From positions 1 through 27,813 of IMG/VR virus record IMGVR_UViG_2737471833_000010: DNA of 27,813 nt; one strand, written 5' to 3'. The first letter of the stretch is position 1. The number at the start of each line of letters is the position of its first letter. The stretch is from a virus. Its lineage: Duplodnaviria; Heunggongvirae; Uroviricota; Caudoviricetes. The position numbers were made by a program, and so were the translations under genes. This document shows, one piece after another, positions 9,508-16,282 of this stretch. The notes under the pieces were generated by a model, which was given only the letters and a program-made list of their open reading frames with translations, was not told the origin of the DNA and ran no database searches.

Positions 9508-10455
9508 ATGAGCAATACAGCAAAAATCTACGATTTCAGCGCCGCACACGAGCGCAGGAGCAACAGGATGGAGAACCAGAAAACTGGTTACATTCCGTTG
9601 TACCGGAGCATTCTGAAACAGTCATGGGCGAAAGATGTTTATCTTCGCACCCTGTGGGAAAACCTTCTCCTGAATGCCGCCAGAAAGCCATACAAAGCGA
9701 ATTTCAAAGGTCATGAATGGCATCTGCAACCCGGTCAACTGGTTGTGACAGCAGCTGATTTAGGTCTTCAGTTATGCGACAGGCATGGCAAGCCGGCAAG
9801 CCGTGATCAGGTTGAGCGGATGCTTCAGGTTTTTGTGAAAGAGGGGATGATCACTATTGATGGAGAGAAGCAAAAAGGTCGTGTGATCACCATCACAAAT
9901 TACCATGAATATGCTCAAAAAATGGACAATTCACCCGCACATGAAGCCGCACAAACAACCGCACATGATGCCGCACATGATGAAGCCAGTAATGGCGCGG
10001 CTTTCAGCGTACATGCCGCACATGAAAGCGCACATGAGGCCGCACAAACAACCGCACATCATGAACAAGAAGGTATTAACAAGAATATAAATAATACCCC
10101 CCTACCCCCCAATGGGGGAGGCGATGGGCAGGTTAAACATGAACGTCGCAAGGCAGAACGAATCGACTACGAATCCTTCCTGAACGCCTACAACACCGAA
10201 GTCGGTGACAGACTGCCACACGCTGTTGCGGTCAACGAGAAACGCAAACGCCGCCTGAAGAAAATCATCCCGCAACTGAAAACGCCAAACGTGGACGGTT
10301 TCAGAGCGTATGTCAGGGCGTTTGTACATCAGGCCAAGCCGTTTTACTTCGGAGACAACGACACTGGCTGGACGGCAGATTTTGATTACCTGCTGAGGGA
10401 AGATTCGTTAACGGGAGTACGGGAAGGGAAGTTTGCAGACAGGGGGATTGCATGA
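9508..10455 (+). CDS. Replication initiator, lambda O-like N-terminus with phage replisome-organizer C-terminal domain (315 aa)
   Basis: [10 protein letters not shown]... resembles the lambda O start MTNTAKI. Iteron repeats are embedded mid-gene, giving an [14 protein letters not shown] peptide repeat. Stop overlaps the helicase start (ATGA). Confidence 0.8.
9935..10063. repeat. Putative replication origin iterons: two blocks of four 12-bp direct repeats (CCGCACATGANN)
   Basis: Repeat starts at 9935, 9947, 9959, 9971 and at 10016, 10028, 10040, 10052, each with 12-nt periodicity. Followed by an AT-rich tract at 10064-10095. Lies inside the O-like gene, as ori-lambda does. Confidence 0.55.
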
Positions 10456-11828
10456 AACAGGATATCGAAGCGAGCGTTATCGGTGGCCTGCTGATTGGTG
10501 GATTAACACCAACTGCCAGTGACGTTCTGGCAACGCTGGAGCCGGAAGCGTTTTCAATTCCGCTCTACCGGAAAGCCTTCGAGGTTATCCGCAAGCAGGC
10601 GAGAAACAGAAACCTAATCGACGCGCTGATGGTTGCCGAGGCGTGCGGAGAGGAGCATTTCACGTCAATCCTGATGACCAGCAAAAACTGCCCGAGCGCC
10701 GCAAACCTGAAGGGATATGCCGGAATGGTCGCGGATAACTATCACCGCCGTCTGGTGCTGGAAATCATGGACGAAATGCGTGAACCAATTCAGAGCGGAA
10801 CCATCGACGCATCGAGTCAGGCGATGGACGAGCTGGTAAAGCGTCTTTCAGCCATCAGAAAGCCACGTGACGAGGTAAAACCTGTACGGTTAGGGGAAAT
10901 CATCACCGACTACACTGACACGCTTGACAGGCGTCTGAGGAACGGAGAAGAGTCAGATACCCTGAAGACCGGAATCGAAGAACTTGATGCCATCACCGGA
11001 GGGATGAACGCGGAAGACCTGGTGATAATCGCTGCTCGTCCTGGTATGGGGAAAACCGAGCTGGCGCTGAAGATTGCCGAAGGCGTTGCAAGCCGCGTTA
11101 TTCCTGGTTCTGACGTCCGGCGCGGGGTATTGATTTTCTCAATGGAAATGAGCGCATTGCAGATTGCAGAGCGAAGCATTGCCAACGCCGGGAGGATGTC
11201 GGTTAGCGTACTGCGAAATCCTGCATCGATGGATGACGAAGGCTGGGCGCGTGTTGCTAACGGCATGAGTCAGCTTGCAGATTTGGATGTATGGGTAGTC
11301 GATGCCTCGCGGTTATCGGTAGAAGAAATTCGCTCAATCGCAGAGCGGCACAAACAGGAAAATCCAAACCTGTCACTCATCATGGCGGATTATCTTGGCC
11401 TGATTGAGAAGCCGAAAGCAGACCGCAACGACCTCGCAATTGCTCACATCTCAGGAAGCCTGAAGGCGATGGCGAAAGACCTGAAAACGCCTGTTATCTC
11501 CCTAAGTCAGCTTTCGCGCGATGTTGAGAAGCGACCAAACAAACGCCCGACAAACGCAGATTTGCGTGATTCAGGAAGCATTGAGCAGGACGCAGACTCA
11601 ATCATCATGCTCTATCGGGAAGCGGTATATGACGAGAACAGTAGCGCCGCGCCATTTGCTGAAATCATCGTGACGAAAAACCGTTTTGGCTCACTTGGTA
11701 CGGTTTACCAGCGGTTCTGTAACGGACACTTTGTTGCATGTGACCAGGATGAAGCCAGACAGATTTGCACAGCATCAAATGCACCTGCTGCGCGTGGCAG
11801 ACGATATGCACAAGGGGCTGACGTATGA
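10452..11828 (+). CDS. Replicative DNA helicase, DnaB family (458 aa)
   Basis: N-terminal DnaB-like domain, Walker [10 protein letters not shown], and RecA-like C-terminal motifs (SMEMS, ...SQLSRD...). Translationally coupled to the initiator. Confidence 0.9.
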
Positions 11829-11854
11829 CCATCTACATCACTGAGCTAATAACA

Positions 11855-11883
11855 GGGGCTATTTACACAGTAGCCCTTTTTTA
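11855..11883 (+). terminator. Intrinsic terminator after the helicase gene
   Basis: GGGGCTA tttacacag TAGCCC followed by TTTTTTATT. Confidence 0.55.
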
Positions 11884-11909
11884 TTGGATTAAGAACGAGG
11901 GGGATCCTG

Positions 11910-12113
11910 ATGGACACCGTTAACGGAATGTGTTCAGACGCACCGCGTGCCAAAAAATGTAAATGCGGAAAATCACCGACAATATTCGACATGGAGAACG
12001 TGTGCCAAATCTACTGCGCTAACCACGCCGCTGTGGCGGCCGCGAATTATCGCAGTGCGGTAACGGAGTGGAATAACCTGAAATCTGTTAGAGAGGGAAG
12101 TCATGAATCTTGA
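11910..12113 (+). CDS. Small Cys-rich hypothetical protein (67 aa)
   Basis: GAGGGGGA lies upstream of the ATG. Cys pattern CKCGKS...C..YC..H suggests metal binding. Confidence 0.45.
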   Translation: MDTVNGMCSDAPRAKKCKCGKSPTIFDMENVCQIYCANHAAVAAANYRSAVTEWNNLKSVREGSHES

Positions 12114-12285
12114 CGAGCAAGATGCACAAACTATTAGCTCATACATAAGGGCATCAAGACCAGATTACAAAGGTCCGGTATTCGTAGATTTATCTCGCCT
12201 TGAGGAGATTTACATGTGGGAAGCAAAGCTACGTACGCATTTTTTTATTCGTAAGATGACTAGCAACATTACAAAACCAATGTAA
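12103..12285 (+). CDS. Hypothetical protein (60 aa)
   Basis: GAGAGGGAAG lies upstream of the ATG. Overlaps the previous gene by 11 nt. AT-rich. Confidence 0.45.
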   Translation: MNLDEQDAQTISSYIRASRPDYKGPVFVDLSRLEEIYMWEAKLRTHFFIRKMTSNITKPM

Positions 12286-12299
12286 CTGGAGAGGTGAAT

Positions 12300-12515
12300 A
12301 TGAGCACACTCGCAGACCTTATTCATGCCGATATGGCGGAAGATGGAGCAAGGCGTAATAGGTACTGGAAATCATCAAGCCTTCCAGTTTGTGAAAGATT
12401 CAACCACAGGCCAAAACCAAAACGTAGCCGGCGAGACAAAGTGTTGAAAAAACTCATGCAAATTAACATGGCTGGTTTTGTCAGATTCGTGAGTGAAACG
12501 ACTAACGGGGATTGA
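12300..12515 (+). CDS. Hypothetical basic protein (71 aa)
   Basis: ATG at 12300 preceded by GGAGAGG. Arg/Lys-rich centre. Confidence 0.45.
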   Translation: MSTLADLIHADMAEDGARRNRYWKSSSLPVCERFNHRPKPKRSRRDKVLKKLMQINMAGFVRFVSETTNGD

Positions 12516-12516
12516 T

Positions 12517-12801
12517 ATGGGCGAATCAAGAAAGCAGTTTGAGGAATACGTTGCCAAAAAATTGAGATTACCATTCGAGATGATAACCGAGGCAAGAAAT
12601 GGTGATAGGTACTTCGCATTTTCAAGCATGGATATTCGTCACTCCTTAAATGAGTGGTGGACTTTATGGCAGGCATCGCGAGCAGCTATCGAGATTGAGC
12701 TTCCTGAAAGCTTTACCATGCATAGTGGGCGAACCCCATATCTGTATGTAAGCGAGGTGCAGAGCGCCATCCGCGCTGCTGGAGTCAAAGTGAAGGAGTG
12801 A
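12517..12801 (+). CDS. Hypothetical protein (94 aa)
   Basis: ATG at 12517 is 1 nt after the upstream stop. The ORF-track N-terminal extension is rejected. Confidence 0.5.
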   Translation: MGESRKQFEEYVAKKLRLPFEMITEARNGDRYFAFSSMDIRHSLNEWWTLWQASRAAIEIELPESFTMHSGRTPYLYVSEVQSAIRAAGVKVKE

Positions 12802-12803
12802 GT

Positions 12804-12971
12804 ATGAGCGCATACGAAGAAATCATGTTAGCCCTGCGATTCTTTTTCGGTGTGGAAGAAGATGAAAACGTAAATGAGATTATCGGGCAAGACCATGACC
12901 CGATAGGGACTATTGCAGCTGCACTTGACGATTACAGGAGCGTAAATGGTGAGGAAACTAACGTTTGAACT
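12804..12971 (+). CDS. Small acidic ORF (55 aa)
   Basis: AAGGAGTGAGT lies upstream of the ATG at 12804. Overlaps the ninB start by 26 nt. Confidence 0.3.
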
Positions 12972-13389
12972 AAGAAGCACCATCCATCAGCAGAACGCCA
13001 TTCAAGCTATCCAGCAAATCCTTCCAGACCCAACCAAACCAATCGTAGTAACCATTCAGGAACGCAACCGCAGCTTAGACCAGAATCGAAAGCTTTGGGC
13101 TTGCCTTGGTGACGTCTCTCGTCAGGTTGAATGGCATGGTCGCTGGCTGGATGCAGAAAGCTGGAAGTGTGTGTTTACCGCAGCATTAAAGCAGCAGGAC
13201 GTTGTTCCTAACCTTGCCGGGAATGGCTTTGTGGTAATAGGCCAGTCAACCAGCAGGATGCGTGTAAGCGAATTTGCGGAGCTATTAGAGCTTATACAGG
13301 CATTCGGTACAGAGCGTGGCGTTAAGTGGTCAGACGAAGCGCGACTGGCTCTGGAGTGGAAAGCGAGATGGGGAGATCGGGCAGCATGA
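12946..13389 (+). CDS. ninB: NinB (Orf-family recombination mediator) (147 aa)
   Basis: [74 protein letters not shown]... is near-identical to recalled lambda NinB. Confidence 0.9.
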
Positions 13390-13559
13390 TGCGATGTTAT
13401 CGGTGCGGTGAATGCAAAGAAGATAACCGCTTCCGACCAAATCAACCTTACTGGAATCGATGGTGTCTCCGATGTGAAAGAACACCAACAGGGGTGTTAC
13501 CACTACCGCAGGAAAAGGAGGACGTGTGGCGAGACAGCGACGAAGTATCACCGACATAA
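13386..13559 (+). CDS. NinD-like zinc-ribbon protein (57 aa)
   Basis: ATGA overlap with the ninB stop. Product [34 protein letters not shown]... has two CxxC pairs. Size matches lambda NinD. Confidence 0.55.
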
Positions 13560-14064: not shown

Positions 14065-14233
14065 CCCATCCCAATCCATCCAATACCAGAAAGAAAGCGT
14101 CGAGCGGGCTTTAACGTGCGCTAACTGCGGTCAGAAGCTACATGTGCTGGAAGTTCACGTGTGCTCCGATTGCTGCGCAGAACTGATGAGCGATCCGAAT
14201 AGCTCAATGTACGAGGAAGAAGACGATGAGTGA
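14057..14233 (+). CDS. NinF-like zinc-ribbon protein (58 aa)
   Basis: Product [58 protein letters not shown]. Size and Cys pattern match lambda NinF as recalled. Overlaps its neighbours by 8 nt on each side. Confidence 0.5.
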   Translation: MLSPSQSIQYQKESVERALTCANCGQKLHVLEVHVCSDCCAELMSDPNSSMYEEEDDE

Positions 14234-14735
14234 TGTTAAAGAAAAAGATATCCCCGGCTTTGAGGGTATATATAAAGTAACTGAAAATGGAGACATCATT
14301 TCATGCCGTAAATCAAAAAAATTATCTCATGGCATTAAACCAGGAGGATATGCATTTGTCGGTCTGTATCCAGGTGGCGGGAAAAGACCATCATATAAAA
14401 TGGTTCACAGAATTGTTGCAGAAGTATTTATTGATAACCCAGATGGCAAACCGGAAGTTAATCACAAGGATGGAAATAAACTTAATAATAAAGTTGAAAA
14501 TCTTGAGTGGGTAACGCGAACAGAAAATGCGAAACATGGATTTGATTCCGGATTGCTTGTTCATGGGTTTAATCATCACTTCTGCAAACTAACGCCAGAA
14601 CAAGTGAAATCAATATATAAATCAAAAGGCAAATACAGAGATATAGCCAAAGAATTTGGTGTTTGTGCGCAGACAGTGTGCAACATAAAAAACAAATCAG
14701 CGTACCGACGTTTTTTGGAGGGTATTGATGTTTAG
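14226..14735 (+). CDS. HNH homing-type endonuclease (169 aa)
   Basis: HNH core ...VNHKDGNKLNNKVENLEWVTRTENAKHG... and a C-terminal basic DNA-binding region. The gene is conspicuously AT-rich relative to its neighbours. Confidence 0.8.
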   Translation: MSDVKEKDIPGFEGIYKVTENGDIISCRKSKKLSHGIKPGGYAFVGLYPGGGKRPSYKMVHRIVAEVFIDNPDGKPEVNHKDGNKLNNKVENLEWVTRTENAKHGFDSGLLVHGFNHHFCKLTPEQVKSIYKSKGKYRDIAKEFGVCAQTVCNIKNKSAYRRFLEGIDV

Positions 14736-15362: not shown

Positions 15363-15547
15363 ACGCCACAATTCAAACGATACCAGAGCTTCTTATCCAG
15401 ACACGAGGCAATCAGACCGAAGTGGCGAGGATGCTTTCCTGCGCAAGAGGAACAGTGCTCAAGTACAACCGAGACAGAAAAGGCGAGCGTCACGTAATAG
15501 TTAACGGCGTCCTGATGGTCAAACAGGGCAAGAGGGGAAGACGATGA
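15359..15547 (+). CDS. ninH: NinH-like small DNA-binding protein (62 aa)
   Basis: MNATIQTIPELLIQTRGNQTEVARMLSCARGTVLKYNRDRKGERHVIVNGVLMV resembles recalled lambda NinH (…GNQTEVARRLKCSRGTVRKY…). Confidence 0.65.
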   Translation: MNATIQTIPELLIQTRGNQTEVARMLSCARGTVLKYNRDRKGERHVIVNGVLMVKQGKRGRR

Positions 15548-16062
15548 GCATAAGAGAACTAAACCTCACCAAAGAGCAGCACGATTGGCTGAATGGATGG
15601 CTTGAACTGTGGGGCGCATGGGTTTATTCAGGTCGTCTGGAAAAGCGCATGAGCAGCGTAATAGCGAAGTTCATGGAGAGCGTAGAGCCGGGAAGAGTTA
15701 TGACAAGGCCAATGTGCAATGATGATGATGGAATGTTGATTTCTCAGGTCGTCGATTCCGTCATGTACATTGACAAGAAAGCCTTTGGCATCCTCCTCAG
15801 CTACTACGCTCATGGTTCATCTAAGCGAGCAATTGCATCCTACTATCACGCGACTGCAAAGCCACGCAAGATGTGTGGACGTGGTGGCGATGGATGGAGA
15901 AAACCTTCACTGGCAACCTGTAGAAACGAAATTGACGACATCCTGAAAGCGTCGTTATTTGTTTTGTACCAACCAATGCAAAATGCTTTCAAAATGCGTA
16001 AACGTGTTGAGAAAGTTAAGCATGTTGCTGTTAAAAGCCTTGACATGCAATTATCCATTTAG
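15544..16062 (+). CDS. Putative late-gene antiterminator Q (non-lambda Q family) (172 aa)
   Basis: Position immediately after ninH and immediately before a consensus-like promoter, a short terminated leader, tRNAs and lysis genes. Contains Cys/His clusters. The family is not verified. Confidence 0.55.
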   Translation: MSIRELNLTKEQHDWLNGWLELWGAWVYSGRLEKRMSSVIAKFMESVEPGRVMTRPMCNDDDGMLISQVVDSVMYIDKKAFGILLSYYAHGSSKRAIASYYHATAKPRKMCGRGGDGWRKPSLATCRNEIDDILKASLFVLYQPMQNAFKMRKRVEKVKHVAVKSLDMQLSI

Positions 16063-16126: not shown

Positions 16127-16201
16127 GGGTCAGTCGTATAAAGGTCATTACGGAAGGCTGTTAACCTTCTTATCGTGGTTCGAGTCCACGCTGTCCCGCC
16201 A
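16127..16201 (+). tRNA. tRNA-like gene, possibly degenerate tRNA-Asn(GTT)
   Basis: Hand-folded: acceptor GGGTCAG/CTGTCCC with one T-T mismatch, weak D-arm, anticodon stem GAAGG/CCTTC with loop CTGTTAA, T-arm CGTGG-TTCGAGT-CCACG, then G-CCA. Could be a pseudo-tRNA. Confidence 0.35.
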
Positions 16202-16206
16202 AATAT

Positions 16207-16282
16207 GCTGGTTTAGCTCCAATGGTAGAGCAGTCGCCTTGTAAGCGAATGGGTAGCGGTTCAAGTCCGTTAACCAGCACCA
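16207..16282 (+). tRNA. tRNA, anticodon TGT (Thr) by hand folding
   Basis: 76 nt: acceptor GCTGGTT/AACCAGC, D-arm GCTC-CAATGGTA-GAGC, anticodon stem GTCGC/GCGAA with loop CTTGTAA (anticodon at 16240-16242), T-arm AGCGG-TTCAAGT-CCGTT, discriminator A and encoded CCA. Confidence 0.65.

Follow-up and report, generated by a model that had tools for sequence, protein, structure and literature searches.

The question raised by this locus is whether five small open reading frames (ORFs), packed between the terminator behind a phage helicase gene and ninB, act as one module in the place assigned to lambda ren, or whether they are separate genes sharing a slot. In the window, by which the whole analysed stretch of 27,813 nucleotides of viral DNA is meant, the tR2-to-ninB interval holds five tightly packed small genes on the plus strand, encoding proteins of 67, 60, 71, 94 and 54 aa (ORF1 to ORF5). 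All five were found where the first-pass annotation had placed them; only the length of ORF5, given there as 55 aa, needs correction, to 54 aa from its ATG or 56 aa from a GTG at 12798. The five genes are an ordinary, freely reshuffled accessory set, neither a conserved unit nor a counterpart of ren, and the region probably represents the left-hand end of the nin region of a lambdoid phage, a hypervariable accessory slot occupied here by five independent small-gene cassettes.

The boundary sequence ATGACCATCTACATCACTGAGCTAATAACAGG (11825–11856, plus strand) lies at the helicase stop codon and forms the left-hand recombination junction bounding the slot. It is nearly unchanged in an alignment of the window with lambda, Sf6 and HK97, it is labelled "bsq6; boundary sequence" in the Sf6 record, and the ends of BLAST HSPs pile up at it, at 11820–11850. 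An intrinsic terminator, a homologue of lambda tR2 (P22 "L2"), occupies 11854–11884 on the plus strand, with a 10-pair stem and a 5-nt loop in a hairpin at 11854–11878 and then a T-run, in agreement with the terminator previously proposed at 11855–11883. It aligns with the tR2 of lambda and Sf6, with the flanks kept and the stem changed on both arms, and the corresponding terminator is annotated as tR2/L2 in the Sf6 and P22 records. A 32-codon "NinA-like" ORF (11825–11923, plus strand; HK97 gp56, P22 NinA) runs across the terminator with 52% identity to P22 NinA (E 6.5e-8); annotated in HK97 and Sf6, it stands outside the five-ORF set and is probably incidental to the conserved terminator sequence, not a functional gene. 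The conserved right border of the slot is ninB (12946–13389, plus strand), the gene for the Orf recombination mediator (PF05772, E 3e-54), and downstream of it follow NinD, NinE, NinX, NinF, RusA, NinH and Q. Bounded by the tR2 homologue and its boundary sequence on one side and by ninB on the other, the five ORFs run on the strand of the pR operon. Scanned with Rfam and for repeats, the region yielded neither an RNA family nor any meaningful repeat, and a 117-aa ORF on the minus strand (12323–12676) was set aside as a shadow of ORF3 and ORF4.

All five starts are preceded, at 4–6 nt, by a Shine-Dalgarno (SD)-like site (GAGGGGG, GAGGGA, GGAGAGG, GGGGA and AAGGAG for ORF1 to ORF5), and the tight packing described earlier was borne out: ORF1 and ORF2 overlap by 11 nt and ORF5 and ninB by 23 nt, while gaps of 14, 1 and 2 nt separate ORF2 from ORF3, ORF3 from ORF4 and ORF4 from ORF5. 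These strong ribosome-binding sites (RBSs), with overlaps or 1–2-nt gaps, suggest that the block is set up for co-transcription and coupled translation. Every ORF has a full-length PHROG match (E 7e-50, 5e-40, 5e-35, 4e-23 and 2e-32 for ORF1 to ORF5), and close homologues differ preferentially at third codon positions (variable sites by codon position 10/9/23 for ORF1, 6/10/18 for ORF3 and 8/6/23 for ORF5); the full-length matches plus the third-position variation mark the ORFs as genuine small phage genes. The earlier remark that none was recognisable holds for function, which is assigned to no family, but not for membership, since all five belong to catalogued families (PHROGs, DUF7301, HK97 gp60, Sf6 gene 48). 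Scans of the five proteins against Pfam, NCBIfam and PADLOC gave DUF7301 as the sole match, with no defence-system family of PADLOC-DB 2.0 matching any ORF at E<=1. PDB sequence searches with all five ORFs and an ORF4 profile returned nothing meaningful, fold comparison gave no informative match, and two phage accessory-gene screens list none of the five peptides in their supplementary files.

The content of the slot was compared across 157 distinct tR2-to-ninB intervals, in which 13 combinations of the five genes and about 31 ORF sequence clusters, a few of them out-of-frame artefacts, were found; because an interval had to contain one or more of the five genes to enter the set, frequencies in it are biased. 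Each gene is kept individually, and the expectation that the ORFs would be conserved as a unit in related prophages failed. All five genes occur together once, with a 41%-identical ORF4 allele, and among 5426 E. coli genomes a single one reaches 80% or more coverage of the query, with an ORF4 allele different from that of the window. Lambda and P22 have no gene in the slot, HK97 has one and Sf6 four; this variation among related phages makes the position an accessory-gene hotspot. HSP endpoints concentrate at six positions, which match gene junctions and motifs in ORF4. At the recombination junction GAGAGGGAAGTCATGAA (12091–12107, plus strand), a ninB-type RBS and start codon that here starts ORF2, HSP ends cluster at 12090–12100; the same string also precedes and starts ninB in lambda, and HK97 gp60 ends in it. 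Among phages, the cassettes reassort at the tR2 boundary sequence, the ninB-type RBS and ATG, the invariant ends and centre of ORF4, and the 5' end of ninB.

The same flanks, namely a replication gene, the boundary sequence, tR2 and ninB, enclose the left end of the nin region in HK97, Sf6 (genes 45–49) and Stx phages, and the same mosaic exchange at conserved junctions is seen there. Cassettes are shared as well, ORF1 being gp60 of HK97 (which has gp56 and gp60), ORF4 belonging to the Sf6 gene 48 family and ORF2–ORF3 forming the Stx block, whereas no second instance of the present five-gene set with its chimeric ORF4 allele came to light. Partial or complete loss of genes 46–58 leaves Sf6 viable and speeds up its lysis (PMC5630979), adding dispensability to variable content as a property of the slot. 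Because the genes are absent from lambda and P22 and the Sf6 deletions are viable, they are presumed dispensable on permissive laboratory hosts.

The position had been called the ren slot in the first-pass annotation, from which an alternative follows: a functional module in the ren position, conserved as a unit, that serves anti-exclusion or acts as a toxin-antitoxin-like neutralising pair or set. Lambda ren is similarly small, non-essential and part of the pR operon, close to where the replication genes end, but it sits at 40280–40570, after P and upstream of tR2, with ninB directly following that terminator, whereas in the window the tR2 homologue precedes all five ORFs. BLASTP of the five ORFs against lambda Ren and the Ren homologue of E. 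coli KCJ3K291 gave no match at E<=10, and their PHROG matches are to function-unassigned families, not to the Ren family. In KCJ3K291 the Ren homologue (E 3e-15) lies upstream of tR2 and ORF1–ORF3 downstream, so that the true ren position is occupied alongside them; the ren assignment is thus dropped. The tight coupling of the five genes and the opposite character of ORF3 (basic) and ORF5 (acidic) would fit a module, and so would the behaviour of ORF2, which is accompanied by the close ORF3 allele in all 35 of its 35 intervals; no recombination endpoint falls between the two. ORF3 (12300–12515, plus strand; 71 aa, pI 10.4; phrog_1785) passes the Pfam model DUF7301 (PF23975) at 108.6 bits against a cut-off of 27, over residues 1–64 of the 65-position model; DUF7301 occurs in 222 phage records, including ST64T, VT2-Sakai and Klebsiella and Cronobacter phages, and a literature search found no paper on DUF7301 or PF23975. 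Divergent DUF7301 genes (45–64% identity) occur without ORF2, however, and in Stx phages ORF2 has a nonsense codon at position 35 beside an intact ORF3. Of the marks of a type II toxin-antitoxin system, obligate co-occurrence across the family is missing from ORF2–ORF3, as is an autoregulated promoter of its own, the latter as judged by a consensus scan. With 13 gene combinations, no promoter-like site on the plus strand and no PADLOC match added, the neutralising pair envisaged earlier is not borne out, and a conserved module of either kind is highly improbable. ORF2 and ORF3 are nevertheless the only genes of the five that travel together, and conceivably form one two-gene unit.

A different objection is that some of the ORFs, chiefly ORF2 and perhaps ORF1, are nonfunctional, being decaying or spacer sequence that rides with its neighbours. 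ORF2 (12103–12285, plus strand; 60 aa; phrog_21123), mostly omitted from annotation by PGAP, is AT-rich as first noted (38% GC, the window having 49%), shows the least codon-position bias of the ORFs (8/6/15; chi-square p about 0.1), and in the Stx-phage lineage has gathered further substitutions beyond its premature stop; moreover, in the four E. coli chromosomes (prophages) checked, PGAP/RefSeq annotates no gene of the ORF1 or ORF2 type. Against this stand the full-length PHROG matches of both ORFs, their strong and correctly spaced SD sites, the third-position excess of ORF1 with zero stop codons in 40 variants, and a full-length relative of ORF2, 41% identical, in Serratia phage Eta. ORF2 is the least secure gene of the five, but it is very unlikely that it or ORF1 is such a relic. 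For ORF1 (11910–12113, plus strand; 67 aa; phrog_6308), the issue is instead whether it is a divergent zinc ribbon of the Lar type, alleviating type I restriction, in a slot for interchangeable anti-restriction genes. ORF1 is 98.5% identical in amino acids to HK97 Gp60, on which a literature search found nothing, and its family is very small, with 16 clusters at 90% identity. The Cys-rich pattern pointed out at first reading is real, with C8, C17, C19, C32, C36 and H39 kept across the family, as is an AVxEWNxL motif, and the protein is putatively zinc-binding. Its C-x-C-G, 12 residues, C-x3-C, 13 residues and A-V-x-E-W-N parallel the CPFCG...C..CG...AIxAWNRR of Lar (PF14354), likewise a family of small Cys-rich proteins with a C-terminal W-N motif; bona fide members (E 2.5e-13) directly precede ninB in other prophages. 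A profile-profile comparison by hhalign pairs exactly these elements in register (P 0.004), and the AF2 model of ORF1, a beta-hairpin followed by a long helix, was counted in favour too. The likeness, however, stays at a motif pattern and a weak profile score under every family threshold: the HH probability was 8.7%, and 7 of 200 column shuffles scored as high. Ten family members scanned against Pfam at E<=10 gave no Lar match, while the Lar protein of MB64, as positive control, was detected at E 2.5e-13, and NCBIfam at E<=1 gave no match to ORF1. When 1.84 billion representative proteins were searched with a profile of ORF1, 8 close relatives or fragments were all that came back, and thus no bridge to a known family. 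The AF2 model was left out of the fold search because its pLDDT of 59 is too low for use, and for most members of the Lar family the biochemical function is likewise putative. A Lar identity for ORF1 is accordingly judged quite unlikely.

ORF4 (12517–12801, plus strand) encodes 94 aa, or 102 aa from a GTG at 12493, and belongs to phrog_343, the family of Sf6 gene 48, 933W L0091 and phiTE_015, which is present in temperate and virulent phages of many Proteobacteria. Its homologues bear the precomputed assignment PF26207; a literature search found no paper on PF26207 or phiTE_015. Near-invariant segments at residues 1–10, 48–63 and 85–94 enclose two hypervariable cassettes, which reassort. Gene 48, the Sf6 homologue, falls inside the deleted range 46–58. 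ORF5 (12804–12968, plus strand; phrog_1603, E 1.5e-32) is very acidic, with a pI of 4.05 and a net charge of -11, and its final 7 codons overlap the start of ninB. It is 91% identical to its counterpart in Salmonella phage BTP1 and 49–61% identical to those in Klebsiella phages of 137–147 kb. The occurrence of ORF4 and ORF5 relatives in unrelated virulent phages argues for self-contained functions. On composition, ORF5 might, speculatively, mimic DNA as a small acidic protein in the manner of T7 gp5.9; no sequence resemblance between the two is known.

How the genes would be expressed was considered from the signals around them. A consensus scan of 11500–13500 found no sigma-70-like promoter site on the plus strand, a scan that weak or non-sigma-70 promoters could escape, and the sole terminator-like site on that strand is tR2, upstream of the block. 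By analogy with lambda, transcripts from pR would reach the five genes only through N-type antitermination at tR2, and since they would be read in this way alone, the genes are predicted to be delayed-early lytic genes. A moron, in the sense of Juhala and Hendrix, is a gene insertion that brings along a promoter and terminator of its own and is expressed in the prophage state. The five genes resemble morons as extra dispensable genes between conserved ones, present or absent among relatives, but they lack promoter- or terminator-like signals around the individual genes and lie inside a delayed-early operon past tR2; they are thus unlikely to be morons expressed from the prophage.

Within the preferred reading of a slot filled by independent cassettes, the most likely role of each gene would be to encode its own small modulator, acting on functions of the host or of rival phages, and the five proteins would not constitute one multi-gene machine. 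ORF1 would be a zinc-binding and possibly Lar-like protein, ORF4 a scaffold bearing two variable specificity cassettes, and ORF3 and ORF5 the basic and the strongly acidic members of the set. A bolder proposal, that the slot is a small counter-defence island whose cassettes would each counter a different host or prophage barrier, and in which ORF4 is a modular specificity protein and ORF1 a cryptic Lar-like zinc protein, is tentative and on balance unlikely; under it, the ORF4 cassettes may track variable host targets.

As found, the locus is one further arrangement of catalogued small genes in a long-recognised variable region of lambdoid phages, and as such matters little. It also exposes an annotation gap, as RefSeq misses ORF1- and ORF2-type genes in four of the four E. 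coli prophages inspected. The two-cassette hypervariability of ORF4, a protein with no function proposed so far, is the signature expected of a participant in an arms race. Finally, the tR2-to-ninB junctions mark a natural cassette site that could supply anti-defence or host-takeover screens with about 30 small gene families.

The window belongs to a phage or prophage of E. coli of the lambdoid type. Across about 35-39% of its first 25 kb it shows 93-97% identity to CUS-3, HK97, HF4s, Gally and mEp506, which match it best overall. An O-like initiator (9508-10455, + strand) and a DnaB-like helicase (10452-11828) are followed by five small + strand genes, here ORF1 to ORF5, and then by NinB (12946-13389), NinD, NinE, NinX, NinF, an HNH/NUMOD4 endonuclease, a DUF968-like gene, RusA, NinH and Q. 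By this gene order, the five ORFs lie at the left edge of an otherwise canonical nin region. Within the O-like initiator there is a repetitive stretch rich in His and Ala, probably reflecting intragenic origin iterons like those of lambda O. The homing-endonuclease-like gene (HNH_3 plus NUMOD4; 14226-14735, + strand) is inserted between NinF and the DUF968/DUF1364-like gene, and a relative of it fills the slot between the tR2 terminator and ninB in some contigs, for example at 1926-2537 of locus L258. Two tRNA genes (16127-16198 and 16207-16279, + strand; Rfam 55 and 61 bits) lie between Q (15544-16062) and the lysis genes.

The positions assigned by the first-pass annotation were confirmed: ORF1 at 11910-12113 (67 aa), ORF2 at 12103-12285 (60 aa), ORF3 at 12300-12515 (71 aa), ORF4 at 12517-12801 (94 aa) and ORF5 at 12804-12968, the last being 54 aa counted from its ATG versus the 55 originally reported. 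Sequence inspection revealed a purine-rich SD-like site 4-6 nt upstream of all five ATGs. ORF1 overlaps ORF2 by 11 nt and ORF5 overlaps ninB by 23 nt, with gaps of 14, 1 and 2 nt at the ORF2-ORF3, ORF3-ORF4 and ORF4-ORF5 boundaries. A terminator scan returned a single + strand terminator, at 11854-11878 and followed by a T-run, and no + strand promoter-like site was found in the region scanned. For each ORF, one PHROG family matches over the full length: phrog_6308 (7e-50), phrog_21123 (5e-40), phrog_1785 (5e-35), phrog_343 (4e-23) and phrog_1603 (1.5e-32) for ORF1 to ORF5, all labelled "unknown function"; ORF3 also matches Pfam DUF7301 at 108.6 bits. Among close homologues taken from viral contigs, variable sites are enriched at third codon positions, with counts at positions 1/2/3 of 10/9/23 in ORF1, 8/6/15 in ORF2, 6/10/18 in ORF3 and 8/6/23 in ORF5. 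The description of these ORFs as small accessory genes of unknown function was right. The homologues of ORF1 and ORF2 are left without PGAP/RefSeq annotation in all four E. coli chromosomes inspected; unannotated gaps of at least about 470 bp follow the helicase or ren (L001 4001-4470, L002 4001-4687, L392 1200-1670 and L393 597-1070), with intact ORF1 and ORF2 homologues inside.

The block had been placed in the ren slot of lambda, but it lies downstream of tR2, and ren lies upstream. In lambda, ren (40280-40570) is located between P and tR2, and ninB (40644) directly follows tR2. The window can be aligned with lambda, Sf6 and HK97 across the helicase stop codon, a boundary sequence of 32 nt (ATGACCATCTACATCACTGAGCTAATAACAGG) and the hairpin; the terminator flanks are conserved, and both stem arms change together. 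This element is annotated as tR2/L2 in Sf6 and P22, and the short ORF spanning it as NinA; the corresponding 32-codon ORF of the window (11825-11923) is 52% identical to P22 NinA. The block is thus inserted on the downstream side of tR2, at a point where neither lambda nor P22 has anything. Furthermore, a prophage of E. coli KCJ3K291 carries a Ren homologue (909-1199 of L392; 43% identity to lambda Ren over 58 aa, E 3e-15) directly upstream of the boundary sequence and homologues of ORF1, ORF2 and ORF3 downstream, so that the place of ren and the tR2-ninB slot are different. At E<=10, no resemblance to Ren was seen for any of the five ORFs. A difference of 1 nt joins the NinA-like ORF to ORF1 in some E. 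coli genomes, giving a 98-aa "hypothetical protein" (P0002, in a cluster of 20 member sequences) that is probably a gene-calling artefact.

Comparison across related phages and prophages showed that the block is not conserved as a unit. By megablast with a 1146-bp query, no phage record and only one of 5426 complete E. coli genomes reached at least 80% coverage, and pieces were present in 532 E. coli genomes. From 302 viral-contig loci collected via the five proteins, plus reference loci, 157 distinct tR2-to-ninB intervals were obtained, a sample biased by the retrieval of each locus through one of the five genes. These contain ORF4 alone (48), ORF1 alone (38), ORF4-5 (22), ORF2-3-4 (21), ORF1-2-3-4 (8), ORF3-4 (6), ORF1-2-3 (5), ORF5 (4) and several singletons, the set of five being complete only in E. 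coli SFAD3, there with a 41%-identical ORF4 allele. The intervals hold about 31 ORF sequence clusters, a few of them out-of-frame artefacts, including small membrane proteins, an HNH endonuclease, an FlbD-like protein and bona fide Lar-family (restriction alleviation) proteins.

Mosaic exchange occurs at conserved junctions. BLAST HSP endpoints against all loci cluster at 11820-11850, the tR2 boundary sequence; at 12090-12100, the string GAGAGGGAAGTCATGAA, which is the ORF2 start in the window and the ninB RBS and start codon in lambda; at 12500-12540, the ORF3/ORF4 junction with the invariant ORF4 N-terminus; at 12690-12700, the end of the ORF4 central motif; at 12750-12770, the start of the invariant ORF4 C-terminus; and at 12940-12950, the 5' end of ninB. 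None falls between ORF2 and ORF3. All genes abutting ninB terminate in ..E(E/K)TN(V/L), since their last codons fall within the conserved ninB start.

In all 35 intervals that contain ORF2, the close ORF3 allele is present too, and a neutralising antitoxin-toxin pair was a conceivable reading of such neighbours. DUF7301 genes of 45-64% identity, however, directly follow tR2 without ORF2, and in Stx phages ORF3 is intact despite an ORF2 knock-out, so the association looks like simple linkage in one module and unlike an antitoxin-toxin pair. That knock-out is a GAG-to-TAG change at codon 35, leaving 34 codons, as in phi330 (2013-2117 of L004) and in Stx2 phages; substitutions are denser behind the stop than ahead of it, which suggests that ORF2 is in decay in this lineage. 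ORF2 is the weakest gene case of the five (38% GC, weakest codon bias), and a full-length relative, 41% identical, exists in Serratia phage Eta. ORF3 is basic (pI 10.4) and widespread (222 phage records), and ORF5 is strongly acidic (pI 4.05, net charge -11); its relative in Salmonella phage BTP1 shares 91% identity with it, and those in Klebsiella phages of 137-147 kb share 49-61%. Neither ORF3 nor ORF5 gave a function-giving structure or family match.

For ORF1, membership in the Lar family (PF14354) was weighed. ORF1 is HK97 gp60 (98.5% aa identity), in an area labelled "ninA" in CUS-3, and its family is very small, with 16 clusters at 90% identity and 8 representatives in a profile search of 1.84 billion proteins. 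The conserved C8, C17, C19, C32, C36 and H39, accompanied by a motif AVxEWNxL, parallel the zinc ribbons of Lar, and a true Lar gene directly precedes ninB in E. coli MB64. In hhalign against 47 Lar sequences from viral contigs, the expected elements were in register, yet at no better than P 0.004 and a probability of 8.7%, and 7 of 200 column shuffles reached the score; the AF2 model is a beta-hairpin plus a long helix with pLDDT 59. Lar is thus a lead for ORF1, not an assignment.

The ORF4 family is broad, with 126 protein clusters and 144 phage records, among them those of P22-like, Chi-like, Proteus and Pectobacterium phages. Near-invariant in its alignment (A6) are MDESRKQFEE(W), W.AWQASRAAIEIELP and AIRAAGIKVKE, and between them lie two stretches, V1 and V2, that are hypervariable. 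In 123 parsed proteins, 26 V1 types and 23 V2 types form 51 combinations, and 13 pairs of V1 types have at least two V2 types in common (four-gamete test positive); the cassettes therefore recombine. The window allele is itself a chimera: across 12503-12701 its DNA shows 100% identity to Sf6 gene 48, and beyond that stretch it diverges. In the central motif, constant amino acids with varying third positions indicate selection on the protein; the invariance of both ends at third positions too points to conservation of the DNA itself, although for the N-terminus the search pattern partly imposed it. The invariant C-terminal segment also contains AAGGAG, the SD site for the gene that follows.

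In lambda, genes beyond tR2 are reached by pR transcription after N-type antitermination, and pR transcription would likewise reach the five ORFs only after N-type antitermination at tR2. The block is probably dispensable: lambda and P22 are entirely without it, and when Sf6 was evolved experimentally, genes 46-58 were lost wholly or partly from 61 of 82 isolates, which grew faster (PMC5630979); these genes include gene 48, the ORF4 homologue. The nin gene pool comprises 30-50 genes, about 10 per phage (cited in PMC5630979). The region is of an ordinary, already catalogued kind, and its combination is new. The one feature that a specialist might follow up is the hypervariability of the two cassettes in the ORF4 family. 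In conclusion, the five ORFs may encode dispensable factors that modulate functions of the host or of competitors.
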